DNA of 64,000 nucleotides from Candidatus Melainabacteria bacterium. Its GTDB lineage: Bacteria; Cyanobacteriota; Vampirovibrionia; Vampirovibrionales; JAJTHC01. The notes under the pieces are model-generated. The model was not told the DNA's origin. It ran no database searches and saw only the letters and a program-made list of their open reading frames with translations. Below, piece by piece: positions 2,658 to 31,511 of the stretch. The translations under genes were made by a program, and so were the position numbers. The DNA is taken from the NCBI GenBank assembly GCA_033763415.1, contig JANRKP010000007.1, positions 9,046-73,045 on the forward strand, read 5' to 3'. Positions within the stretch are counted from its first letter, which is position 1; every line of letters begins with the position of its first letter.

Positions 2658-3757
2658 CGCCGATACCAGGCAAGCAAACCAGCAACAGTGTTTCGCCCGC
2701 TTTGGCTACAATCGCTTCAGCGCGGCCATTAATGGAGCGAGAAACCCTGCTGAGAGCCCAATCTGCCATGAGCTGCTACAACCAGTTTCCAATTCATCTG
2801 CAAACGCTTCAGCAAGCCCGGCAATGGGTATACCGAGATCTTTCTCCCACGGCGCAGTACGAGTGGCCACTACTCTCTAAAGCAGTGGGGTGTCGGGTTT
2901 GGGTCAAGCACGAAGGCCACGCCCCAACAGGATCGTTTAAAATCCGAGGGGGGCTGGTGTACTTGCACTGGCTGGCGAAAACCCAACCTCAGGTACAAAC
3001 CGTGGTCACCAGCACGCGCGGCAACCACGGGCAAAGCATTGCCTACGCCGCCAAAGCCAGCGGAAAACATGCCGTTATTGTGGTGCCCAACGGCAACAGT
3101 GCTTGCAAAAACCGTGCCATGATCGCCCTGGGAGCCGAACTGATTGAGCACGGAGACGATTTGGTCGCCGCCAAAGAACACGCCATGAGCCTGGCACAAG
3201 CCAACGGCTGGCATTTCATTCCATCCTTTGCGCCGCCCCTGGTGGCGGGCGTGGCCAGCTACGCCCTGGAGTTTTTGGAAGCCCAGCCTCATTTGCAAGC
3301 CATTTACGTACCCATTGGCATGGGGTCGGGCATCTGCGGGTTTATCCAGGCCCGCAACGCGCTGGGCCTGGCCACCCAAATCATCGGGGTGGTGGCCAGC
3401 GGGGCCGATGCCTACGCTCGCTCGTTGGCAAGTGGTCAGTTGCAATGTACCGAAGCCGCCAATACCCTGGCCGATGGCATTGCGTGCCGAACGCCGGACC
3501 CGGTGGCGTTTGATCTCATTCGGCATGGGGTGGAACGCATTGTTACCGTCAGTGATGACGCAATCCTGGACGCGATGGCGCAATTCTTCCACTGCACGCA
3601 TCACGTGGCGGAAGGGGCTGGCGCCGCCTCATTGGCCGGATTAATGCAGGAAGCGGCCCTGTGGAAACCACACCAGCAGGTGGGGGTTGTTCTTTCCGGC
3701 GGCAACGTGGATGCCCCCTTGCTTCAACACGCGTTAACCCACTGTGCCCAGCCCTAG
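2654..3757 (+). CDS. PLP-dependent threonine/serine dehydratase (threonine ammonia-lyase, short form without an ACT regulatory domain).
   Basis: GSFKIRGG PLP-lysine motif and a glycine-rich loop (GNHGQS). It is ~367 aa, so it lacks the C-terminal regulatory domain. ATGA overlap with the apbC stop suggests translational coupling. Confidence 0.85.
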   Translation: MTPIPGKQTSNSVSPALATIASARPLMERETLLRAQSAMSCYNQFPIHLQTLQQARQWVYRDLSPTAQYEWPLLSKAVGCRVWVKHEGHAPTGSFKIRGGLVYLHWLAKTQPQVQTVVTSTRGNHGQSIAYAAKASGKHAVIVVPNGNSACKNRAMIALGAELIEHGDDLVAAKEHAMSLAQANGWHFIPSFAPPLVAGVASYALEFLEAQPHLQAIYVPIGMGSGICGFIQARNALGLATQIIGVVASGADAYARSLASGQLQCTEAANTLADGIACRTPDPVAFDLIRHGVERIVTVSDDAILDAMAQFFHCTHHVAEGAGAASLAGLMQEAALWKPHQQVGVVLSGGNVDAPLLQHALTHCAQP

Positions 3758-3821
3758 TAGGGCGTGTCCTCACAGTAAATTATCCCAAGGCACCCTCACC
3801 CATCGCAGGAGGACGGCTGTT

Positions 3822-4004
3822 GTGCAGGTGGAAATTGTTCCAGGATGTATCGCCTGTGGTGTTTGTCAGTCGATTTGTCCAGAAGTGTTTACTGTTACGG
3901 AAACGGCGTTTATCAGCGGGCCAGAGATGATTCCCCATTGCGCCAACGCGTGCTTGGAAGCAGCCCGGGCTTGTCCTGTTCAAGTCATTCAGGTTGAGGA
4001 ATAA
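3822..4004 (+). CDS. Small ferredoxin with a single Fe-S cluster.
   Basis: CIACGVCQSICPEVF ... CANAC cysteine pattern. GTG start preceded by AGGAGG at ~9 nt. 60 aa. Confidence 0.7.
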   Translation: MQVEIVPGCIACGVCQSICPEVFTVTETAFISGPEMIPHCANACLEAARACPVQVIQVEE

Positions 4005-4063
4005 TGGAGGGCGTATCCTCCACAGCCAATCCACAACAGCCTTTTTAGTTTGGGAGAGACAGT

Positions 4064-6271
4064 ATGGCAAACCCCGAAAACCCCACCCGTGTGGAACACG
4101 CCTCCACGGAACACGCAGAAAACCGACTGGCTGTGGCAAGCAGCGCCTACTTGCGCAGCGCCGCCCATCAACCCATTGATTGGTACGAATTTGGCCCCGA
4201 AGCATTCGAGCGGGCCCGAACGCTAGACCGCCCTCTGTTATTGGATATTGGCGCCGTCTGGTGCCACTGGTGCCATGTGATTGACCGGGAATCCTACGAA
4301 GATCCCGATATTGCTCAGATCATCAATCAGCACTACGTGGCGGTTAAGGTGGACCGGGATCAACGCCCGGATGTGGATAGCCGCTACCAGCAGGTCGTCA
4401 TGTCCATGACGGGCCAGGGGGGCTGGCCACTGACTGCTTTTTTAACCCACGACGGGCGCGTTATTTATGGCGGCACTTACTTTCCGCCCCAAACCATGAA
4501 ATCTCTGCTGAATCAGATTCATCAGGTCTATCAGCAGGAAAAAGCCAACATTTTTGCCAGCAACGCCGAGCAGGCCCAGGGCGAACCAGCAGACAACAAG
4601 ACGGATAGCGCCATTGCATCCACCATTCTGGCGCTTTCCACCCTGGCGGAAGCGGACGCGCACGCCCAACTGAAAACCGCCACCGATACCATGCTGGAAC
4701 ATATTCTTAGCCGCTACGACGGTATTTATGGCGGATTTGGCCAGCAGCCCAAGTTCCCGCACTTTAGCACCCTTCAGTGGCTCATTCAGCGCGTGCAGCA
4801 ACACGAGCTGGAGGGAAAACCCAACGCCCCCCTAAAAAGCCTGGTTCTCAACACGCTGGAAGAAATGGCCCGAGGCGGCATTTACGATCAGCTGGCCGGG
4901 GGCTTTCATCGCTATTCCGTGGATCGGGTTTGGCACGTGCCGCATTTTGAAAAAATGGCCTACGACAACGCAGAGGCACTGACCGTCTACAGCCAGGCAG
5001 CCCGGCTGTTTAAGCACGCTTACTTTGAAGAAATTACCGATGGCATTCTGCGCTGGGTGACCGAGCATTTGTCAGACACGGAACAGGGCGGCTTTTACGC
5101 CTCGCAGGATGCAGACATTGACCTGCATGATGACGGCGATCACTTTACCTGGAGCAGGGATGAAATTCTCAGCGTCCTGAACGCCGAACAGGCCGAGCTG
5201 GCCATGGCCTACTACGATGTCAACGAAGCCGGAGATATGCACGATCGCCCCGGTAGAAACGTGCTTTGGGCCAAACAATCCCTGGAGGAGGTCGCCGTTC
5301 GCTTTCGGATGTCGCCCCACCAACTGGTAGGGGAGCTCGCCGATATTAAAAGCCGATTGTACCAGCATCGGTTGGCCCATCGGCCCGTGCCGTTTATTGA
5401 TACCACGCTGTACACCAACTGGAACGGTATGATGATTGTTGGCTTTCTGGAAGCGGCGGACTTACTCCAGCGGCCCGAGGCGCAAGCCCTGGCCCTACGC
5501 TCACTGGAGCGAATGCTCCACCTGTTTTACTTGCCGAATCAGCGGGTATTCCACACGGAAGGCATCCACGGCCTGCTGGAAGATTATGCCTGGCTGGGCC
5601 TGGCAGCCCTCCGCGCGCACGAATCCACCGGCAATGCCACCTACCTGGCCGCTGCCAACGACATTGCCGCACTGATGATTCAGCAATTTTCTCCCCAAAC
5701 ACAGGACTCCACCGATTTTCAGGAGTCCGTGCCCGCATTTGTGCAAGGCTTTTTCGATACAGCCACGGAAGAAACACCGATTGGCCTGCTCAAATACCGC
5801 CGTCGTCCCCTGGAAGACAGCCCGAGCAGCAGTGCCAATGCAACCGCGCTCCAGCTCCTTTACCGGCTCAGTGTACACCAGCCCAACAGTCGCTATGGAC
5901 AATGGGTTCAGGCAACGCTTTGCTACCTGCTGCGCACCGAGGGCGGATTGGCCCCCCTGGGCTTATTTGTAAGCGCACTGGGCATTTTGGCGGATTGGCA
6001 ACACGCCCCGCCGCTGAAAATAGAATTGGTGGGCAACGCACCGGAGGCGTGGCAACAGGCGGTGTGCTCCGTGTTTTTTCCTGGAAAAATGGTGGTACAC
6101 CCGCAGCCCAGCACCAGCCCGGATCAGCCGCATGAGGTTCGCCCCGGCCCCGAAATTCGTCTCTGCGTTGGGCGGCAGTGTTTAGCACCCATTACCACCA
6201 CAGAGGCATTGGAAGCAATCCTCCAGTCACCTAACAGGCACTTCTCGGCCGGGTTGGCGTCTCTGTTTTAG
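4064..6271 (+). CDS. Thioredoxin-domain protein of the DUF255/YyaL family: N-terminal thioredoxin-like fold plus an (alpha/alpha)6 six-hairpin domain.
   Basis: N-terminal LLLDIGAVWCHWCHVIDRESYEDPDIAQIINQHYVAVKVDRDQRPDVD is typical of DUF255. The ~735 aa length fits the family. ATG at 4064 confirmed in the sequence. Confidence 0.8.
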   Translation: MANPENPTRVEHASTEHAENRLAVASSAYLRSAAHQPIDWYEFGPEAFERARTLDRPLLLDIGAVWCHWCHVIDRESYEDPDIAQIINQHYVAVKVDRDQRPDVDSRYQQVVMSMTGQGGWPLTAFLTHDGRVIYGGTYFPPQTMKSLLNQIHQVYQQEKANIFASNAEQAQGEPADNKTDSAIASTILALSTLAEADAHAQLKTATDTMLEHILSRYDGIYGGFGQQPKFPHFSTLQWLIQRVQQHELEGKPNAPLKSLVLNTLEEMARGGIYDQLAGGFHRYSVDRVWHVPHFEKMAYDNAEALTVYSQAARLFKHAYFEEITDGILRWVTEHLSDTEQGGFYASQDADIDLHDDGDHFTWSRDEILSVLNAEQAELAMAYYDVNEAGDMHDRPGRNVLWAKQSLEEVAVRFRMSPHQLVGELADIKSRLYQHRLAHRPVPFIDTTLYTNWNGMMIVGFLEAADLLQRPEAQALALRSLERMLHLFYLPNQRVFHTEGIHGLLEDYAWLGLAALRAHESTGNATYLAAANDIAALMIQQFSPQTQDSTDFQESVPAFVQGFFDTATEETPIGLLKYRRRPLEDSPSSSANATALQLLYRLSVHQPNSRYGQWVQATLCYLLRTEGGLAPLGLFVSALGILADWQHAPPLKIELVGNAPEAWQQAVCSVFFPGKMVVHPQPSTSPDQPHEVRPGPEIRLCVGRQCLAPITTTEALEAILQSPNRHFSAGLASLF

Positions 6272-6377
6272 TAAGTGGCACTCCAGTGGACTTGTTTGGC
6301 CAAGGAACGGTCCAACACCCACCAGTTGCCGTTTTAATTGTTGTTATATTGTACGAGTGGGAGGGTACCAGCCGACT

Positions 6378-6614
6378 ATGGATGCCTACAATGTGATGCA
6401 AGACCATGAAGACCACCTGATGAGCCTGCCCAATGTGACGGGTGTTGGCATTGGAGAAGACGAAAAGGGCCAGGAAACCATCGTCATTTACCTGAGCCAA
6501 CTGCCGGAAGCACAAACGGAATGGCTCAACACCACCTACCCCAATTCGTTAAACGGTATACCGGTGGTACTCCAAGATGCAGGGGGCCATTTTTTAGCCC
6601 TGGCGGAACGATAA
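6378..6614 (+). CDS. Hypothetical small protein (78 aa).
   Basis: ORF with GGGAGGG about 8 nt upstream of ATG (MDAYNVMQDHEDHL...). No recognisable domain. Confidence 0.4.
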   Translation: MDAYNVMQDHEDHLMSLPNVTGVGIGEDEKGQETIVIYLSQLPEAQTEWLNTTYPNSLNGIPVVLQDAGGHFLALAER

Positions 6615-7244
6615 ACACCGCCATTGCCACCCGCTGGCCCCAGATGATTCCAATAGGAAAAAACAATCCACCCATGCGGCCCGCTTTGCCCTGGGTGGAT
6701 TGTTTCTGGGTAGACTGTTTATAGAATTCGGTTATAAATATTTTTTTTAAATAAAAACGAATATTTATTCAGCTCAATTGAACAACAATTGGGTATAACT
6801 AAAAGCAGAACCGAGCATCCATCTTTCTTTAGATGGGGCCAATTTTTGGTTGCGTGGGGTCGGGGTCATTGCTCCGCATAAAGCCAAGCACGCGCCACAT
6901 CTTTAAAAAAACCCGCAAGAGCCACCACCGTGAGACTGTAGAAAATCCGTTAATCGTTCGATATTGAATGTTATACGAGAGAACGCCACTGAAAAAATGG
7001 CCAGCCGCTGCGCAATACGGCTGTAGTTGGCACGCCCCGGCAAGCAGGCCGTCCGTGTTATACACGGGCGCGAAAAATCAGCCAATATTATCCAGCCCAA
7101 CGGCCAACAAGCCACCTTCCCCGAGGGAGAAAGCGCCACACACCTTGATTACACCCTTTTTTGATAGCACCCTTTATCGCGTTTTAGCTTAGCCGCATTT
7201 AGCGCCCATCGTAGGTCAGGAGTGACGCATGCAGTTAGAGCACT

Positions 7245-7667
7245 TTATGGACGAGTTGCTGTCACTAGTTCAAGAAGCGCATGTTTGGTATGAGCATGGG
7301 CAGGCGGAAAACCTCCCGCCTCCAATTCCCGCCGAAGTTGATCGAAAAAGTCCTCTGGTAGTTGGGCAATGGCTCCATGGCGGACCAGTTCCACCAAGGC
7401 CAAAATAAGCTGGGATAAACTGTACTCGTCGGCGGCTCGCAACGCCTTTAGTTTATCCAACGTAAAGCCCGCCCGAGAAAAGGACGGCGTGTTGGCCAAA
7501 CGCTCCAGCGTCTCGTCACGAAACCGTCTGCGCCCGTGCATCAGGTTTGACAACCCGTCGGCAGATATTCCCATTTCTCTGGCCAATCGCTCCACAGATA
7601 AACCCTGATGCAGCATCAGCGTTTGAATGGCCAACCCCAAACTGTTTTCGGAACGCTTCATGACCAA
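7245..7667 (-). CDS. XRE-family helix-turn-helix transcriptional regulator.
   Basis: HTH_XRE-like segment LSVERLAREMGISADGLSNLMHGRR near the N-terminus. 140 aa. Confidence 0.6.
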   Translation of the reverse strand: MVMKRSENSLGLAIQTLMLHQGLSVERLAREMGISADGLSNLMHGRRRFRDETLERLANTPSFSRAGFTLDKLKALRAADEYSLSQLILALVELVRHGAIAQLPEDFFDQLRRELEAGGFPPAHAHTKHALLELVTATRP

Positions 7668-24920: not shown

Positions 24921-26603
24921 TTACACAGCCCAGCGGGCCAATAGGCGGCCCACCAGCTCGCGCAGTTCCGAGGGAAGATTCAGTTGCTCTTTGACCCGCA
25001 GCAACTCCTCTTCCACACAACGGCGCCCATACTGCTGCAAAAAGCCGGGCGTTTCCACCAGTTTCTGGTTGTCCACCTCCTGACGCAACTGCACGGCCGC
25101 CGAAGCGGCTAGCTGGCTGAAACTGTGAATTTCCTGACAGTGCAGCAAATAGGCGGCTTCCGTCAAACGAGGAATCAGCAAGGCCTTCCATCCACTATTT
25201 ACCAAAGCCCGGGTTACCTGATGGGACAATGTGTCCAACAGGTCAAAAAATACCGCGTCGGATTCCGGCGGATGCGCCACGGCAGCCTCTAGCATAGCGC
25301 TTACCTGGCCCAGCAGTTCCGTCACTTCCGGGTGATCGCCGGGCTCTAAAAACCAGGTTTCAAAATCGGGGTGCTGGTATAAATTGGCGCCCAACACCAT
25401 ACCCGCCTCGGTGGCCCACGGCTGCACGGTTTCCATTAAATCCATCGGTTCTAGCGAAACATCTTCCAGCAAGACCTTCCAACAGCTATATTCATACGGA
25501 ATGCGGCTGCCGTTGTTGCGACTCATTTTTTCAGCCCACTGAATTTTGTTACGGCAATAGCTGACCGGCACCCGAATTTTCGTGTTGCCCTCGTGGAACT
25601 TCTGCAAAATGCGCTCAAAGTCTTCCTGGGCCAACTGATAAAAACCAAAGCAGTCAATAATGCCGTGCAGGTCGTTTAGCGCCAGGCTCATCATCGTAAT
25701 GTCGCCATTACTCCACTGACGACTGACCACCATGCCCTGGTTTCCCACCCCATCGGGAAGCGTGGCATAACAGTCAAACAAAACCGTTTGCTGCACCAGT
25801 GGGTGGCGAACACTCTGCTCCTGGAACGCCTCCACGGCTTCTTCCCTTAAGGCGCCAGACAGGCGAATTTCACTCAGGGCCCGTTGAATGGCACGGATCA
25901 AATCCGGAGAGGCGGCCACGTAACTGCCCTGCAAAGCCGCCAACCAGTCCGCCAAAAACATACCGGCCGGGGTCAGGCCACTTTTGCCCAAACTGCGTAT
26001 CAAGCGCTGTCGCACCTCGGTTGGAGGCTCCGCCTGAATGAGCGGAATGTAGATATTCATCAGGTAATCGGGCCGGTAATCGTTCTGCAAGGACTCGATG
26101 AGATGAATTTGCTCTGGTTCGGGCAAGGAGCAAATAAAGTCGATAAAATCAATCAGCGCTTCCGGGTTTTGCGAAGACACCTCCAACATGCGTTCGGTTT
26201 CGCGGTTAATCAGCCCCAAGGGATCGTCGAGATACTCCAGGTACAGATCCGGGTCGGTTTCATCGCCCAAGTGGCGCAAAATCAGGTTGGCCGCATCCTT
26301 TACCTCATCGGTGGTGTTGGGGTTGCGGATCAGTTCCCAAAGCGGGGTTTGAAGATGCGCAATGGTGCCCAGTTCCATTAAAATTTCGGCCACGGCCTGA
26401 ATATCCGACGGTTTTTTAGCGCGCTGGAGTTCTTTAACTAAAATGAGCAGCACGGCTTCCCGATCGGCGATTTCTCGCAAACGACGAAACTGTTTGGCCC
26501 GGTCGTGACGAGACGGTGTTTCCACCGAAGTCAGCACGCCCATCACTGCGAGCACTTCGCTACGAATATAAAGTTTGGAAGAAATCTGTGGAACGTCTGT
26601 CAT
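24921..26603 (-). CDS. Conserved-looking hypothetical protein of unknown function (560 aa, soluble, predominantly alpha-helical composition).
   Basis: Long uninterrupted ORF co-directional with the graspetide precursor upstream and ruvX downstream. No motif I can assign. Confidence 0.7.
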   Translation of the reverse strand: MTDVPQISSKLYIRSEVLAVMGVLTSVETPSRHDRAKQFRRLREIADREAVLLILVKELQRAKKPSDIQAVAEILMELGTIAHLQTPLWELIRNPNTTDEVKDAANLILRHLGDETDPDLYLEYLDDPLGLINRETERMLEVSSQNPEALIDFIDFICSLPEPEQIHLIESLQNDYRPDYLMNIYIPLIQAEPPTEVRQRLIRSLGKSGLTPAGMFLADWLAALQGSYVAASPDLIRAIQRALSEIRLSGALREEAVEAFQEQSVRHPLVQQTVLFDCYATLPDGVGNQGMVVSRQWSNGDITMMSLALNDLHGIIDCFGFYQLAQEDFERILQKFHEGNTKIRVPVSYCRNKIQWAEKMSRNNGSRIPYEYSCWKVLLEDVSLEPMDLMETVQPWATEAGMVLGANLYQHPDFETWFLEPGDHPEVTELLGQVSAMLEAAVAHPPESDAVFFDLLDTLSHQVTRALVNSGWKALLIPRLTEAAYLLHCQEIHSFSQLAASAAVQLRQEVDNQKLVETPGFLQQYGRRCVEEELLRVKEQLNLPSELRELVGRLLARWAV

Positions 26604-26937: not shown

Positions 26938-28059
26938 TTACTGAATATCGCGGTTCAGCCTAGGACGTTGCCAAGCCTGAAGCGAGCTGCCTTCGGGTGG
27001 AACATCCATCAGAATAGCGGGCGGTTGCGCGTCTTCTTCCAACGCTTCTACCGGCAGCCACTCTTGGGAAGAACCGGGCTGAATGCTATGGCCAAAGTCC
27101 TCTTCCATTAACTCAGGGCCCCATTCCTGCACATCGGCAGGCGGCATATGGGGTGCGTCCTCTTCTATCAGGCCCGGAAAACAGTCAATAAAGTCCTGGC
27201 GGCCCATCGGAATCAGGGTTTCGTCTACCTCTAAACCGGGTGGAATATAGCCAGGGGAAGGCTCGGGTTCGATCGGCAGTTCCTCCATCCAGCGACCGTT
27301 GCCGGGCACGATAATGATGTCATCGCCAGGCGCTTCGCCCACACCCCCGGTTTCAGCATCGGATGGGAATGCCAACGTTTGTTCCACAATACTGGGGTTT
27401 GACGGCTCCCACGGCATCGGCCCTTCAATTCCACCAGGCTCCATAGAGCCCCCATCTTCGCTGTCAGATGGGTACTTCATCGTTTCTATGCCACTGTCGG
27501 GCAAGGGAAAAATACCACCATCGCCAGGCGCTTCACTTGCGCCCCCATCTTCACTATCGGACGGATACTTCAGGGTTTCTATGCCACTGTCGGGCAAGGG
27601 AAAAATACCGCCATCGCCAGGCAGCTCACCCACACCACCCTCTTCGCTGTCAGATGGGTACTTCATCGTTTCTACGCCACTGTCGGGCAAGGGAAAAATA
27701 CCGCCATCGCCAGGCAGCTCGCCCACACCACCCTCTTCGCTATCCGAAGGTGCCTTCATAGTTTGGTAGCCACCGCCCAAATCGCCGGGTTGGGTAGCCC
27801 AGGGCGCTTCGCTAGAACCACCCTCTTCACTGTCAGAGGGGTATTTCATCGTCTGAATCACCGTATCTGGAGATAAGGGCGAATCCCAGGACGTGCCACC
27901 CACGCCACCTTCTTCACTATCCGATGGCGCTTTTTCGGTCTCACCACGAATGCCATCCATCCATTGACGCCCCTCTGGGTTGGCTTGGGCCAAGCGCGGC
28001 AACGGTTGCGGGGGGGTTTGGCCGCTAGTCGCAAAATTGAGGAAATAACGATCTGTCAT
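26938..28059 (-). CDS. Multi-core graspetide (microviridin-like) precursor peptide: leader, 7 tandem core-like units, and an acidic C-terminal tail.
   Basis: The translation contains TEKAPSDSEEGG, TMKYPSDSEEGG, TMKAPSDSEEGG, TMKYPSDSEEGG, TLKYPSDSEDGG, TMKYPSDSEDGG and TLAFPSDAETGG, spaced ~31 aa apart. T-x-K-Y-P-S-D-x-E-E is the microviridin core signature. The N-terminal DRYFLNF resembles the PFFARFL leader motif. Adjacent to three ATP-grasp genes. Confidence 0.75.
   Translation of the reverse strand: MTDRYFLNFATSGQTPPQPLPRLAQANPEGRQWMDGIRGETEKAPSDSEEGGVGGTSWDSPLSPDTVIQTMKYPSDSEEGGSSEAPWATQPGDLGGGYQTMKAPSDSEEGGVGELPGDGGIFPLPDSGVETMKYPSDSEEGGVGELPGDGGIFPLPDSGIETLKYPSDSEDGGASEAPGDGGIFPLPDSGIETMKYPSDSEDGGSMEPGGIEGPMPWEPSNPSIVEQTLAFPSDAETGGVGEAPGDDIIIVPGNGRWMEELPIEPEPSPGYIPPGLEVDETLIPMGRQDFIDCFPGLIEEDAPHMPPADVQEWGPELMEEDFGHSIQPGSSQEWLPVEALEEDAQPPAILMDVPPEGSSLQAWQRPRLNRDIQ
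27448..27726. repeat. Three near-identical tandem ~93-bp coding repeats inside the precursor gene (the core plus linker units).
   Basis: Protein units VGELPGDGGIFPLPDSG(V/I)ET(M/L)KYPSDSE(E/D)GG repeat three times. The DNA is near-identical. The plus-strand shadow ORFs also show the repeats (PLSGKGKIPPSPG...). Confidence 0.8.
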
Positions 28060-28320
28060 AGGAAAAACGAAACCTCTCTGCTCTCTAATCTTTTATGTTG
28101 GCTTGGCAAAAAACCGAACACATCGACGTTTCAGTCTGTCACCCAAGCAACGGGGTAACATCTGTTACTGAAAACTGCTTCATGCACGCCAGCACAGCTC
28201 TTTAACTCTCTATTTACAGGTTTTAGTTCTCTCTCTCTTGATAACCCTTGGATGCAGCCCGAAGAGATGCAACCCAAAGCATATTTGACACCTGACGGGG
28301 ATTTTTTTAAGCGGAAACGA

Positions 28321-28340
28321 AACCTGCAACAATGCAGGTT
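28321..28340. promoter_or_regulatory. Perfect 8-bp inverted repeat (AACCTGCA-ACAA-TGCAGGTT) in the divergent intergenic region between the graspetide precursor and the ATP-grasp operon.
   Basis: Read directly. Flanked by GAAACGAAAC-type direct repeats at ~28067, ~28315 and ~28352. Confidence 0.3.
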
Positions 28341-28702
28341 GAATGCATAAAGTAGAAACGAACCGCTTTTGTGCTAGACACACCCACCTTTAGCGCTTGG
28401 GCAAAGTATTTAGCCTTGTGGAGCGGCGCGCTCAGTGGTTGCATTCTGCCCTACATCGTTGCATGGTGCTTAGGGCCTGTCGCTGGGCTTGCTGACAGCT
28501 TGCCCTACCCCCCCGATAAAGGACACCACTTTCATTTTGGTAGAGGGTTTGTCTTGCAGAAATTTTTTGGAAAGATGGCCTCGTTTCCGCTGGACAGGGG
28601 AACCCAAACACCCGAGCGCCTGTTAAAATCGAGCCAATGTAGGCACTGTACCTGCGGTATCCTACTCCGCCGGTATTACAAACGGGTTTTACAATAGCCA
28701 CT

Positions 28703-29650
28703 ATGTTTTTAATCATTGGCGGCAGCAACAGCCTAACCAACCGACTCTACGCCAAGCTGCGCGCACGCGGGCACCGAAGCTGCTTTTGGCCCTCGGACAG
28801 TTTTCCCCTGGAATCCTGGGTCGCGCTGGAAACCGGCCCCCCCCCCAAAGGACGGTTCTGGCTACCTGGTATTGGGCAACAAAGCCTCTCTCTGCAAGAA
28901 ATTGAGGGTGTTTATTGGTGGTTTTATGAAGGTCCGGCATTACTGAAAGCCCCACCTGTCGAAGGAGAAACCCCGGAGCAGGCCGCTCGACGCCAGCGCC
29001 AGGAGTTGGATGCCTGCCTGCTGACAGCCTATCACTTGATGGATTGCCCCTGGATTAACCCGCCAGGCAGCGTCCTAAACCACCGTTACAAGGTAGAGCA
29101 GCTCACCGAGGCGACCGCGTTGGGGTTCACCATTCCAGATAGCCTGATGAGCAACGATCCTCAAGCAATTGCAGCCTTTTACCAGGATTGCCAGGGCGAA
29201 GTGGTTGTAAAAAGTGTGGCCACCACTGGGGTGCCCAGCCGGTTAACCCAAGCACAACTAAGCCAATGGCAGAAAAATGGCGAAAGTAAGCCTGCCACCC
29301 GGCTGTTTCAGCGGTTTATACCCGGCACCGATGTGCGGGTACACGTGGTGGGCCAGCGCCTGTTTGCGTCTGAGGTATTAAGCGATCATTGGGTGTCCAA
29401 GGTCGATCTCAAAGATCCGCAACCTGTTTCCATTCCCGATGCGCTGGCGCAGCAATGCCTTACATTGTGCGAAAAACTCAATCTGGTACTGGCCGGGATT
29501 GACTTTAGGAAAACATCGGACGGGGAATACGTTTTTTTGGAAGCCAACCCCAGCCCACAGTACCCCGCCTACGAAGACCGAAACCACTACCCGATTAGTG
29601 ACGCCATTGTAGAGGCCTTGATCCGTGGCGTGGGGGCAAAACACCGATGA
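28703..29650 (+). CDS. ATP-grasp ligase, RiPP-modifying (MdnB/MdnC-like graspetide maturase), paralog 1.
   Basis: Pre-ATP-grasp N-terminus MFLIIGGSN... ATP-grasp motifs: VVKSVATTG (Lys), IDFRKTSDGEYVFLEANPSPQY (E-x-N Mg site). ~315 aa. Stop overlaps the next start (ATGA). Confidence 0.85.
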   Translation: MFLIIGGSNSLTNRLYAKLRARGHRSCFWPSDSFPLESWVALETGPPPKGRFWLPGIGQQSLSLQEIEGVYWWFYEGPALLKAPPVEGETPEQAARRQRQELDACLLTAYHLMDCPWINPPGSVLNHRYKVEQLTEATALGFTIPDSLMSNDPQAIAAFYQDCQGEVVVKSVATTGVPSRLTQAQLSQWQKNGESKPATRLFQRFIPGTDVRVHVVGQRLFASEVLSDHWVSKVDLKDPQPVSIPDALAQQCLTLCEKLNLVLAGIDFRKTSDGEYVFLEANPSPQYPAYEDRNHYPISDAIVEALIRGVGAKHR

Positions 29651-30591
29651 TTTTGATTATAGGCCACCGAGACGAACACACCCAGCGCGTGGAAGCCCAC
29701 CTGGAAACCCTGGGCCAGCGCGTCATCTACTGGAACACACAAAGTTTTCCGGCGGAAGCCAGCCTTAGCCTGCACCTGGGAGATTTTTCCCAATCCTGTT
29801 TGGAACTGCACCAGGAGCGGTTGTTTCTTTCAGATATTGAGGGCGTTTACTGGTACCACTACCACGGCGTGCGCCCAGGCAGCCGAACAACAGACCCGGA
29901 GGCAGACGTTTCTCTGCTCAATCTGTTTCGCAGTTGGCAAACAAACTGGGTCAACCCGCCCGCATCCGTTATGCGCCACAGACTGAAAATCTATCAGCTA
30001 CAACAGGTCGCACAGCTTGGTATTCGGACTCCACACACGCTGGTGAGTAACGATATTGGCAGCCTGCAATCCTTTTGCGAACAAATGGGCGGCACCATTA
30101 TTTCTAAAAACTACACGGGCATTGGCATTCCGCAAAAACTGACCAGCGCCTCACTGGCCAGTAACCTTCAGGCCGATTCATCTCAGCGCAGCATGATGCC
30201 TGCCATTTTTCAGGAATACATCCAAGGGCTGGATATCCGCATCCACGCGATAGGAGACGCCCTGTTCGCCACGGAACTGCACACGCAGGACTGGACGTTT
30301 GTGCTGGATCGCCAGGTGGAACTGCGCGCCACCAGCGTGCCAGACGATTTGGCCGAACAGTGCCAGCGGATTATACAACGGTTGGGACTGGTTTTTTCCG
30401 GGTTAGATTTTAGACGAACCCAAACAGGAGAGTACGTTTTTATTGAAGCCAACCCCAGCCCGCAATTTGGCGCCTACGAAGCGGCCTGCCACTACCCCAT
30501 TAGCGAACACGTGGCCAAACGGCTCTGTGGCAAGCACCCCAACTACCCAACCGGCCCATCCCGGCCCGGAACGGAGGGACACACGGCATGA
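29647..30591 (+). CDS. ATP-grasp ligase, RiPP-modifying (MdnB/MdnC-like), paralog 2.
   Basis: Paralogous to 28703..29650 (WVNPPASVMRHRLKIYQL vs WINPPGSVLNHRYKVEQL; LDFRRTQTGEYVFIEANPSPQF). ATGA-type overlap with both neighbours. Confidence 0.85.
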   Translation: MILIIGHRDEHTQRVEAHLETLGQRVIYWNTQSFPAEASLSLHLGDFSQSCLELHQERLFLSDIEGVYWYHYHGVRPGSRTTDPEADVSLLNLFRSWQTNWVNPPASVMRHRLKIYQLQQVAQLGIRTPHTLVSNDIGSLQSFCEQMGGTIISKNYTGIGIPQKLTSASLASNLQADSSQRSMMPAIFQEYIQGLDIRIHAIGDALFATELHTQDWTFVLDRQVELRATSVPDDLAEQCQRIIQRLGLVFSGLDFRRTQTGEYVFIEANPSPQFGAYEAACHYPISEHVAKRLCGKHPNYPTGPSRPGTEGHTA

Positions 30592-31511
30592 CCATTCTCA
30601 TTGTGGGCAAAGAAGAAGATCTCACCTCCATTGTGATCAAGGAAAAAGTCGCCTATCGCGGCATTCCCGCCTATTACCTGGATACCCGGCAGTTTCCGTA
30701 CAAAACCCGACTGAGCTTCAACATCGAATCGCCCACGGAAGGCGTTTTTCAGGAGGCGCCCCATCAGCCCGTGGTTCCTCTGGGCGACATTCGCGGCGTG
30801 TTTCGTCGCTGGTCCGACGGCGTGGTGGTTCCAGCAGACGAGACCGACCCCTTGCGGCGACGCCTGGTGCAACGAAACCTGGAATCGGCCATCAACACGT
30901 TTTTCAACCTGCTGGATTGCCAATGGGTCAATACCGCCGAGGCCACGGACCGACACCGGCAAAAAGGCGTGCTGCTGAAAGAACTGAAACAGGCTGGCAT
31001 CCGTGTTCCAGAAACCCTGATTTCCAACCACCCTGAGGAGGTCAAAGCGTTTTACGAACAACTCAACGGCCAGGCCATTTTCAAACCCGTATTCAGTTGG
31101 GCCAGCACCGAGGCGCTGATGCCTGAACACCTGACAGACGAATCCCTGGCGCGGCTGAGCAATATGCCCATTACCGTTCAGGAGCTGATTAACGGAACAG
31201 ACTTACGCATTTACGTGGTGGGCCAAGAGGTGTTCGCCATGGAAATTCGCAGCGAAACGCTGGATTTTAGAGACGATCCGGGCGCCACGCGAGTTGCAAT
31301 AAAGCTTCCAATGGATATTGAAGCCCGCTGCATCGAGATTACCCGTCGGCTGGGCCTGGTGTTTTGCGGTATCGATATGCGCAGAACACCAGACGGCGAG
31401 TACGTGTTTTTCGAAGGCAATCCCACACCCGTTTTTCTGATGGATGAAGACATGACCGGCTACCCCATCGGGGATCGCATCGTGGATTTGCTCACCCAAG
31501 GCGAGCGTTAA
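30588..31511 (+). CDS. ATP-grasp ligase, RiPP-modifying, paralog 3 (more divergent).
   Basis: Same architecture (MTILIVGKEED... IFKPVFSWAST ... IDMRRTPDGEYVFFEGNPTPVF) but lower similarity to paralogs 1 and 2. Confidence 0.85.
   Translation: MTILIVGKEEDLTSIVIKEKVAYRGIPAYYLDTRQFPYKTRLSFNIESPTEGVFQEAPHQPVVPLGDIRGVFRRWSDGVVVPADETDPLRRRLVQRNLESAINTFFNLLDCQWVNTAEATDRHRQKGVLLKELKQAGIRVPETLISNHPEEVKAFYEQLNGQAIFKPVFSWASTEALMPEHLTDESLARLSNMPITVQELINGTDLRIYVVGQEVFAMEIRSETLDFRDDPGATRVAIKLPMDIEARCIEITRRLGLVFCGIDMRRTPDGEYVFFEGNPTPVFLMDEDMTGYPIGDRIVDLLTQGER

Follow-up and report, generated by a model that had tools for sequence, protein, structure and literature searches.

Class II microviridin precursors have up to five cores, double-glycine (GG) sites and associated C39 peptidases (classification of Ahmed et al., PMC7823629). 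In this class, for example in AMdnA of Anabaena sp. PCC 7120, one leader with a PFFARFL box precedes tandem TxKxPSDx(D/E)(D/E) cores followed by GG, two ATP-grasp ligases modify each core, the precursor ends at the last core, and the products are predicted serine-protease inhibitors. The locus described here lies in a 64,000-nucleotide stretch (the window) of contig JANRKP010000007.1 of a Candidatus Melainabacteria bacterium (GCA_033763415.1), and comprises the gene of a 373-amino-acid (aa) precursor and three ATP-grasp ligase genes, AG1, AG2 and AG3. The single leader, the tandem cores with GG, the ligases for each core and the predicted inhibitory products are as in class II, but the precursor has seven cores instead of up to five, three ligases instead of two, no PFFARFL box, and about 134 residues (the tail) after the GG of the last core.

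Marinostatin is a single-core, gammaproteobacterial, bicyclic peptide with two ester links and the sequence TMRYPSDSDE, with Met at P1. Core 7 of the window precursor (TLAFPSDAET) likewise has only two ester pairs, and cores 2, 4 and 6 (TM[K/R]YPSDS[E/D]) are closely alike with Met at P1, whereas the bicyclic-type unit is here one of seven in a polyprotein. In the plesiocin system (group 2), the ligase PsnB binds the leader box LFIEDL of PsnA2, with Phe15 in a hydrophobic pocket and Asp18 paired with Arg181 (bioRxiv 10.1101/2021.03.09.434688). Plesiocin is likewise multi-core, and PsnB is the closest solved relative of AG3, in which the hydrophobic leader pocket is kept; LFIEDL resembles both the N-terminal Y-F-L-[ND]-[FY] motif and motifs of the tail, and LFIEDL-like strings occur in the window in the tail only. 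Plesiocin has TTxxxxEE cores and one ligase, versus microviridin-type cores, three ligases and an additional predicted lactam here; no TTxAxGEE motif was found in the window.

More than two cooperating ATP-grasp ligases likewise act on TxKxPSD-type cores in the myxomiditide system (myx, PMC12848669), and a cluster with four cooperating ligases has been described (PMC12848669). The extra myx ligases form KxxE lactams in a segment that extends a single core at its N-terminal side, whereas here the unit is a plain 10-residue one and the third ligase correlates with K3-acid10. Chryseoviridin has a multi-core precursor with TxKxPSD-type cores (Zhao et al. 2021, as cited in PMC8939145); myx and chryseoviridin are both microviridin-like systems whose ATP-grasp ligases are either supernumerary or dual in function. 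Processing of a multi-core substrate by AMdnC is distributive (Zhang et al. 2018, PMC5934393). In engineered graspimiditides a C-terminal leader still directs the ligase, and a three-core substrate became fully modified more readily when a second leader was added (PMC13003496); those followers are engineered, whereas the C-terminal modules considered here (a helix in relatives, the tail in the window precursor and in a relative at locus L122) are natural and putatively ligase-binding. A metagenome scan with the precursor alignment gave 46 multi-core precursors; most were of the PFFARFL type, the largest number of cores in one was 19, and two ATP-grasp genes followed multi-core precursors at 20 of 36 loci. 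As had been stated in a preliminary description of this DNA, the last core is normally where such precursors stop: in 41 of the 46, 13 aa or less followed it.

In the proposed reading, the N-terminal DRYFLNFA would recruit the ligases as a functional analogue of PsnA2 LFIEDL and MdnA PFFARFL. The three ligases would cross-link side chains inside each T1-x-K3-x-P-S6-D7-x-E9-[E/D]10 unit. Each of cores 1 to 6 would receive the lactones T1-D7 and S6-E9 and a K3-acid10 lactam, and core 7 the two lactones only, for a total of 20 dehydrations over the whole precursor, and the products would be freed at the GG after every core or kept together as a multi-headed inhibitor. In the window precursor and in that of L122 the tail would replace the hydrophobic helix of relatives; through its repeated motifs, at least one of the ligases or some other maturation factor would be recruited to the far end of the 200-aa core array, and the tail itself would be no cyclisation substrate. 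Taken as a whole, from precursor, rings and inhibition to the tail with its docking role, this statement has somewhat less than an even chance of being right.

Precursor, leader motif and cores

The open reading frame (ORF) of the preliminary description exists, with the correction that it lies on the minus strand (Table 1); the plus-strand translation of the same interval was stop-rich throughout. The precursor matched NCBIfam NF033738 (microviridin/marinostatin RiPP, a peptide made on the ribosome and modified after its translation) with 86.1 bits (cut-off 26; five matched stretches) and Pfam PF12559 (Inhibitor_I10) with 62.5 bits (cut-off 21); with these scores the core units are far above chance, and the multi-core microviridin-type precursor proposed earlier was borne out. 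One N-terminal motif and seven GG-followed units agree with the class II pattern of one leader, several tandem cores and optional double-glycine sites. The whole precursor has a net charge of -59 and no N-terminal signal sequence. A 100%-identical database protein (P0001) originated from a 'Candidatus Melainabacteria bacterium' metagenome-assembled genome (MAG), on one contig only. The sole run of six or more identical bases in the gene was a C7 homopolymer at 28010-28016 (codon 15), distant from the tail, and no frameshift is indicated there because the leader motif upstream and the cores downstream share their frame. From its profile matches and layout, the ORF almost certainly encodes a true graspetide precursor with several cores, of the microviridin/marinostatin type, and belongs to a Melainabacteria (Vampirovibrionia-like) genome.

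The N-terminal DRYFLNFAT has counterparts in at least 10 relatives (NRYLLNFA, QPYLLNFA, SNYLLNFA, NRYMLGFP, SGYFLDYA, SDYFLDYV, GRYLLNYV, NSYFLDYA, PAYFNKFA), with the consensus [x]-Y-[FLM]-L-[NDG]-[FY]-[APV] at the extreme N-terminus of P0004, P0006, P0007, P0009, L002, L008, L012-14, L122 and L123. With a position-specific scoring matrix (PSSM) built from the relatives' N-termini and excluding the window sequence, it was the best site in the protein (18.2 bits). The earlier suggestion that DRYFLNF is a leader element thus held as regards a recognition motif, and not as regards its model: the closest experimentally defined analogue is the PsnA2 LFIEDL box bound by PsnB rather than PFFARFL, because the best solved relative of AG3 is PsnB and no PFF[AS]x[FL]L (PFFARFL-type) sequence occurred in any frame of the window.

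The K/A position of the seven units fell at aa 43, 72, 102, 133, 164, 195 and 230, with a spacing of 29-35 aa, in agreement with the approximately 31-aa spacing described before. Units 1 to 7 read TEKAPSDSEE, TMKYPSDSEE, TMKAPSDSEE, TMKYPSDSEE, TLKYPSDSED, TMKYPSDSED and TLAFPSDAET, with GG after each; KYPSD in cores 2, 4, 5 and 6 and KAPSD in cores 1 and 3 had been read correctly. Cores 1 to 6 fitted TxKxPSDx(D/E)(D/E) exactly, and core 7 retained the two ester pairs only. As had been argued, the absence of Lys makes a lactam impossible in core 7; the Ser-to-Ala change reported with it is present but at a non-bonding x position, and the additional loss of E10 (to T) had passed unmentioned. 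A bicyclic form, as in marinostatin, is predicted for core 7.

A paired loss of K3 and acid10 as in core 7 was also found in core 1 of P0007 (TERYPSDNET), in P0006 (TLRYPSDNEG) and in P0009 (TLAYPSDHEG). Both were lost jointly in 4 of 5 variant cores of K-type precursors, and of the clade's 32 cores just 1 had acid10 without K3. Connectivity of the microviridin type, in which the third ligase would form the lactam, is indirectly supported by this co-loss and by the number of ligases in relation to acceptor acids (see below); we infer T1-D7 and S6-E9 lactones and a K3-acid10 lactam.

The microviridin residue that enters the S1 pocket is the one between the ester Thr and the amide Lys (PMC7823629). 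The P1-equivalent residues of cores 1 to 7 were Glu, Met, Met, Met, Leu, Met and Leu, which suggests that the products may be serine-protease inhibitors whose targets are of the subtilisin, chymotrypsin or elastase type, with one further unit specific for Glu.

Tandem Repeats Finder reported a 93-bp repeat of 3.2 copies, and a second repeat finder (find_repeats) listed families D1-D3 for it. The array spans units 3, 4 and 5 and the core of unit 6, and not cores 4 to 6 as first described. Nucleotide identity was 89% between units 3 and 4, 82% between units 4 and 5 and 77% between units 3 and 5; synonymous codon differences numbered 5-10 per repeat pair and equalled or exceeded the non-synonymous ones among units 3 to 5. 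With 77-89% identity and this many synonymous differences, the duplication did occur, though not recently, and conservation of the peptide is apparent; 'near-identical' repeats and a 'recent' duplication were overstatements.

Three ligases and the related loci

The tandem ligase genes are transcribed divergently from the precursor. The mutual identity of the three ligases was 32-37% (AG2 37% with AG1 and 33% with AG3), and their closest solved relatives were PsnB, MdnB, MdnC, AMdnB and CdnC. On the RiPP ATP-grasp models TIGR04187/04185/04184, AG1 scored 76-117 bits, far below the cut-offs of 350-475; on TIGR04184/TIGR04185 the three ligases scored 76-125 bits against cut-offs of 475/425, short of the MvdC/MvdD equivalog level. 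They were 22-30% identical to the ligase pairs beside PFFARFL-type precursors. Judged by these scores and identities, the three ligases are not MdnB/MdnC orthologues. An assignment to MdnB or MdnC roles by score was dropped, as the scores do not discriminate.

The PsnB leader pocket was kept in AG3 (Y171/I193/L196/V201/F203 corresponding to F165/L187/L190/I195/V197), and PsnB R181, which pairs with the leader Asp, corresponded to Glu175. The D(F/W)R loop, essential in PsnB, was canonical in AG3 only (DFR). The corresponding regions read DHW...VDLK in AG1 (approximately aa 235-250) and DWT...LDR in AG2 (approximately aa 225-240), where MAFFT and HMMER alignments disagreed; MyxD2 (PMC12848669) is offered as a comparison for the non-canonical loops of AG1 and AG2. 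A scan for AG3 homologues with one genome per species gave a clade centred on Vampirovibrionales/Melainabacteria (45-68% identity), with cyanobacteria and planctomycetes at 35-41%.

Canonical mdnA-E/mvdA-F clusters include one ester ligase of the MdnC/MvdD type, one amide ligase of the MdnB/MvdC type, a GNAT N-acetyltransferase and an ABC transporter (in class II, with a C39 peptidase), whereas Pfam scans of about 30 ORFs across the window, covering most large ones and skipping some of 220 aa or more, gave no GNAT, ABC transporter or C39 peptidase, and no membrane-fusion protein or TolC.

At the related loci, with ligases counted in 6-10 kb flanks only, the number of ligase genes followed the acceptor acids of the cores. 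Three ligases accompanied D7, E9 and acid10 (+K3) in the window (28703-31511) and in L002 (7320-10924), and two accompanied D7 and E9 in L008, L122 and L123. The Gastranaerophilales loci L012-L014 broke this one-to-one rule, with one ligase and yet two acids (D7, D8; TLAYPSDDA). In L124 and L126, where the contig is cut, only an AG3-like gene was present and the precursor lacked its N-terminus. P0004, P0006, P0007 and P0009 had D7, E9 and acid10 (+K3) in most cores, P0007 (locus L001) with no ligase within 10 kb. The match between ligases and acceptor acids suggests one ligase per ring, and offers a simple testable route to assign each ligase one ring.

A hydrophobic, Pro/Gly-free helix of approximately 14-20 aa (e.g. 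QIIQLMTQFLQIIMQLLQ, ITQILQRLQVLLNLL) occurred in ten relatives: before the cores in P0004, P0006 and P0009, inside the array in P0007 and L012-L014, and at the C-terminus in L002, L008, L123, L124 and L126. It was absent only from the window precursor and that of L122, the sole bearers of the acidic tail, so that helix and tail were mutually exclusive across 12 precursors.

Some observations on these loci stand apart. Precursor and ligases can be unlinked: the five-core precursor of L001 (P0007) has no ATP-grasp gene within 10 kb, and the ligase triad of L004 has no precursor nearby. L123 encodes a 342-aa precursor (3731-4759) with 14 cores that mix a K-type (TxK[YF]PSDNES) and an A-type (TxA[YF]PSDSEG); neither type has an acid at position 10, which leaves Lys3 with no obvious lactam partner.

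The acidic C-terminal tail

An approximately 134-aa D/E/P-rich tail with no core motif had been described; the lack of a core motif stood, and the first seven residues (VGEAPGD) proved to be the conserved start of a normal spacer, so that the novel portion is approximately 127 aa. The tail had a net charge of -24, with 29 acidic residues, 6 Ser, 1 Thr and 0 Lys. Its codon log-odds were 0.348 in frame, compared with 0.331 ± 0.114 for in-frame gene chunks of the window and -0.53 off-frame; the tail's own five other frames scored from -0.39 to -0.96, and the other two same-strand frames were closed by stops. Hidden cores or a helix in other frames were rejected, those frames being full of stops. 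A single-sequence AlphaFold model of the tail had a predicted local distance difference test score (pLDDT) of 43.6 and a predicted template modelling score (pTM) of 0.14. By composition and this model, the tail is intrinsically disordered and very acidic, and a folded domain is disfavoured by the same scores.

A phmmer search with the tail against 1.84 billion representative proteins returned the protein itself and long repetitive proteins only; a scan of metagenome contigs with the back-translated tail gave no homologue, and a word-indexed profile search with the tail alignment gave zero matches in a database where it also missed P0001, the window's own protein, so that its negatives for low-complexity acidic queries carry no weight. 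The impression of an orphan was overturned by L122 (ENA ERZ28505417, contig_85678), met among the neighbours of AG3 homologues, which encodes an AG3 orthologue (51% identical), a second ligase and a 347-aa precursor with a GRYLLNYV leader, four TM[RM]YPSDHE[SG] cores and a collinear 129-aa tail. The Smith-Waterman score between both tails was 97, compared with 41.8 ± 8.1 for composition-preserving shuffles (z = 6.8; reached in 0 of 1000), at approximately 35% identity. Blocks common to both tails were I-x-I-V-x-PG-x-x-W-x-E, GYIPPxLEVD, G-x-x-DF, [IV]LMDVPPE and a basic C-terminus, and L122 also uses the block at aa 249-290 of the window precursor as a long inter-core spacer. The tail is, on these comparisons, a lineage-restricted module shared with one other known sequence.

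Other origins of the tail within the protein were tried. Past VGEAPGD its resemblance to the repeat units did not exceed that of composition-matched shuffles, and decayed core repeats were rejected. QDFIDCFPG as a second copy of the leader motif was rejected as well (PSSM best 0.2 bits, reached in 57% of shuffles), and homology to the acidic pre-core region of P0009 (IEEDFDH) was not significant (E = 0.29).

The preliminary description had named translation in another frame, a pseudogene and a misassembled fusion as what would undo it. All three are disfavoured by the sole open frame, the gene-like codons and the collinear L122 homologue, and the tail is very probably real and translated. An artefact, whether through misassembly at the repeats, through a frameshift in sequencing or as an extension decaying into a pseudogene, would have in its favour that this is a MAG gene whose 93-bp repeats can confuse assemblers and that the exact protein is found on one contig only. 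It is nevertheless extremely improbable: codon usage is gene-like in frame with the other frames closed, the independently assembled L122 contig encodes the collinear tail as an in-frame fusion to the same kind of core array, and the only homopolymer of at least six bases lies at aa 15, away from the tail.

Docking, secretion or a separate domain had been offered as functions of the tail; with a pLDDT of 43.6 a folded domain is unlikely, and docking is the function preferred here. The tail contained four copies of a hydrophobic-acidic motif, compared with 0.13 expected in composition-preserving shuffles (0 of 5000), for a motif that was defined post hoc; the L122 tail contained two copies (P = 0.009). 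An internal repeat P-x-L-[IM]-EED...QEW scored 45 against 30 ± 6 and was marginal (reached in 7 of 200 shuffles). A C-terminal 'follower' docking module is tentatively taken as the most likely mechanism of the tail, because the tail motifs resemble LFIEDL, engineered C-terminal leaders work, and helix and tail exclude each other. In relatives the helix can stand ahead of, within or behind the core array, and such freedom of position also fits a docking element. Since the position of Arg181 is a Glu in AG3, the obvious candidate ligand of AG3 is the non-acidic Y-F-L-N-F-A box, and if the acidic tail motifs dock anything, it is more likely AG1, AG2 or another factor.

Several points weigh against docking. 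The change of R181 to E175 argues against binding of an acidic box by AG3, and AG1 or AG2 would be required. The motif was picked out after inspection in an acid-rich region, and a stricter hydrophobic-hydrophobic-acid-acid pattern was marginal (2 observed, P = 0.05). The N-terminal leader PSSM found no second copy in the tail. Homology of the tail extends to one relative at approximately 35% identity, which phmmer, the profile search and the metagenome scan all missed; in L122 the module's first half also does duty as an ordinary spacer between cores, compatible with a passive role; and the ligase counts, drawn from short flanks, may be incomplete. The function of the tail, and the link of tail or helix to any ligase, are what we infer from these alignments and motifs.

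A passive role, in which the tail is a spacer-derived disordered extension that has no specific partner, a long linker discarded at core excision and harmless or a solubility aid, is rather unlikely. It would account for the normal spacer VGEAPGD at the start of the tail, for L122 using the first half of the module as a spacer that is followed by a core, for the lack of a predicted fold and of wider conservation, and for fast divergence (approximately 35% tail identity vs. 51% for the neighbouring ligase). It accords less well with some 130 codons kept open in two lineages whose AG3 are only 51% identical, with short blocks strongly conserved (GYIPPxLEVD and [IV]LMDVPPE, one of them at the very C-terminus), with the repetition of the motif, and with the mutual exclusion of tail and helix across 12 precursors.

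Quite improbable is a C-terminal export signal, either type-I-secretion-like or recognised by an ABC exporter/peptidase encoded elsewhere. The precursor has a net charge of -59 and no N-terminal signal sequence, predicted protease inhibitors usually work extracellularly, and L002, L008, L123, L124 and L126 have as their alternative module an amphipathic helix that ends the protein. An amphipathic C-terminal helix resembles type I secretion signals. ABC exporters are employed by class I/II microviridin clusters (PMC7823629), but the scanned ORFs of the window included neither an ABC transporter nor a C39 peptidase, and no TolC or membrane-fusion protein, the helix was internal or ahead of the cores in six relatives, and the tail had no similarity to any known secretion-signal family. 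Extra non-canonical cores in the tail, where one of the three ligases would form, e.g., Ser-Glu esters within GSSQEW or GSSLQAW, are very improbable. There are three ligases but one canonical core type, the tail has 6 Ser and 29 acidic residues, and AMdnC gave one dehydration above prediction on a three-core substrate (PMC5934393); however, Lys is absent from the tail, Thr occurs once, Ser/Thr and acids do not recur in a fixed register, its Ser positions were not conserved with L122, and the three acceptor acids per core already account for three ligases, as two-acid relatives have two.

If docking is extended to the clade, Melainabacterial graspetide precursors would carry natural, position-independent second recognition modules (the helix, or the acidic tail in the window and L122) that are follower-like and let a lineage-specific set of two or three PsnB-like ligases fully process very long arrays. 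This generalisation is unlikely as it stands; if true, it would describe the first natural follower-directed multi-ligase graspetide pathway, and the microviridin cage would be built here by enzymes of an origin separate from MdnB/MdnC.

Table 1. Features of the graspetide locus (window coordinates, except for the last row, which gives positions at related loci)
Feature	Position	Strand	Remarks
Precursor gene, 373 aa	26938-28059	minus	ATG at 28059, stop 26938-26940; NCBI locus SFZ03_02705, annotated hypothetical protein
Leader recognition motif DRYFLNFAT, aa 3-11	28027-28053	minus	conserved at relatives' extreme N-termini
Core 1, TEKAPSDSEEGG	27904-27939	minus	P1-equivalent residue Glu
Core 2, TMKYPSDSEEGG	27817-27852	minus	
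Core 3, TMKAPSDSEEGG	27727-27762	minus	
Core 4, TMKYPSDSEEGG	27634-27669	minus	
Core 5, TLKYPSDSEDGG	27541-27576	minus	
Core 6, TMKYPSDSEDGG	27448-27483	minus	
Core 7, TLAFPSDAETGG	27343-27378	minus	lactam pair gone (K3 to A, E10 to T); lactone pairs T1/D7, S6/E9 kept
93-bp tandem repeat, 3.2 copies	27448-27741		87% matches
C-terminal tail, aa 240-373	26941-27342	minus	Pro/Glu/Asp-rich, no predicted fold
Tail block conserved with L122, aa 249-290 (IIVPGNGRW...GYIPPGLEVD...GRQDF)	27190-27315	minus	BLASTP 45% over 42 aa, E = 4e-4
Hydrophobic-acidic motifs GLIEED (aa 297), ELMEED (317), ALEED (339), ILMDVPP (350)	26995-27171	minus	four motifs
Divergent intergenic region, precursor/ligase operon	28060-28702		Rfam: no family match
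AG1, ATP-grasp ligase, 315 aa	28703-29650	plus	best PDB matches MdnB, PsnB, MdnC; orthologues in L002, L004, L007, L125
AG2, ATP-grasp ligase, 314 aa	29647-30591	plus	overlaps AG1 and AG3, 4 nt each
AG3, ATP-grasp ligase, 307 aa, PsnB-like	30588-31511	plus	best PDB match PsnB (7drm), E = 3.8e-27
560-aa ORF	24921-26603	minus	directly downstream of precursor; weak HEAT-repeat hint, no NCBIfam match
Helix-bearing precursors	L002 9297-9902; L008 2461-2895; L123 3731-4759; L124 2-568; L126 1-186		also P0004, P0006, P0007, P0009; L012-L014

Wider context and minor observations

Multi-core precursors and multi-ligase clusters are already well documented, which does not hold for the leader box, the ligase lineage and the tail. 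Distinctive of this locus are the different leader box, the ligase triad specific to the lineage, and an acidic tail that is real, disordered and common to one other known sequence. If the proposed reading is true, microviridin-type protease-inhibitor chemistry reaches a non-photosynthetic sister lineage of cyanobacteria with a different parts list: a new leader box, three ligases not orthologous to MdnB/MdnC, and C-terminal modules outside the cores. The engineering of long multi-core RiPP substrates could also draw on a follower, or second docking module, that occurs in nature. An attack or defence role for a seven-headed, very acidic inhibitor in a lineage that includes predatory bacteria is speculation. 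In the literature no paper was found tying graspetides to Vampirovibrio, and papers mentioning microviridin together with Melainabacteria exist.

The flanks of the locus consist of housekeeping genes. The 560-aa HEAT-like gene was rejected as a cluster member, with no homologue in any related locus. Rfam gave no match for RNA elements around the locus, and the only promoter-like match in the precursor/ligase intergenic region was a weak one on the plus strand (28688-28716).

Among the other multi-core precursors, L099 (approximately 6001-7530) encodes a 509-aa protein with 19 K[YF]PSDxEDGG cores, beyond the published 'up to five' of class II, and in its N-terminal region a SYRFAS-like motif stands together with a helix and with a PFFxxLLQGQ box. 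An unrelated conserved domain of approximately 110-113 aa was C-terminal in L091, L093 and L094 from the metagenome scan and in P0003, P0010 and P0012, and N-terminal in P0011, L088 and L121; the proteins that carry it are planctomycete-like multi-core microviridin precursors, and the domain has the pattern ...WH.SMPLGQRF..VPLK......F.[FY].A.IP.GA..P.......DPN....F.V.R.GG.AG.T..AGP...

Precursors with plesiocin-like TTLALGEEGG repeats adjoin AG3-clade ligases in Aliinostoc and in some Vampirovibrionales/Melainabacteria (L030 9498-9725, L015 8220-8867, L018 9226-9903), and because of this adjacency one ligase clade (AG3) appears to serve two core types. The TTLALGEEGG precursors of Melainabacteria begin with FINF/LFSNF-type N-termini.

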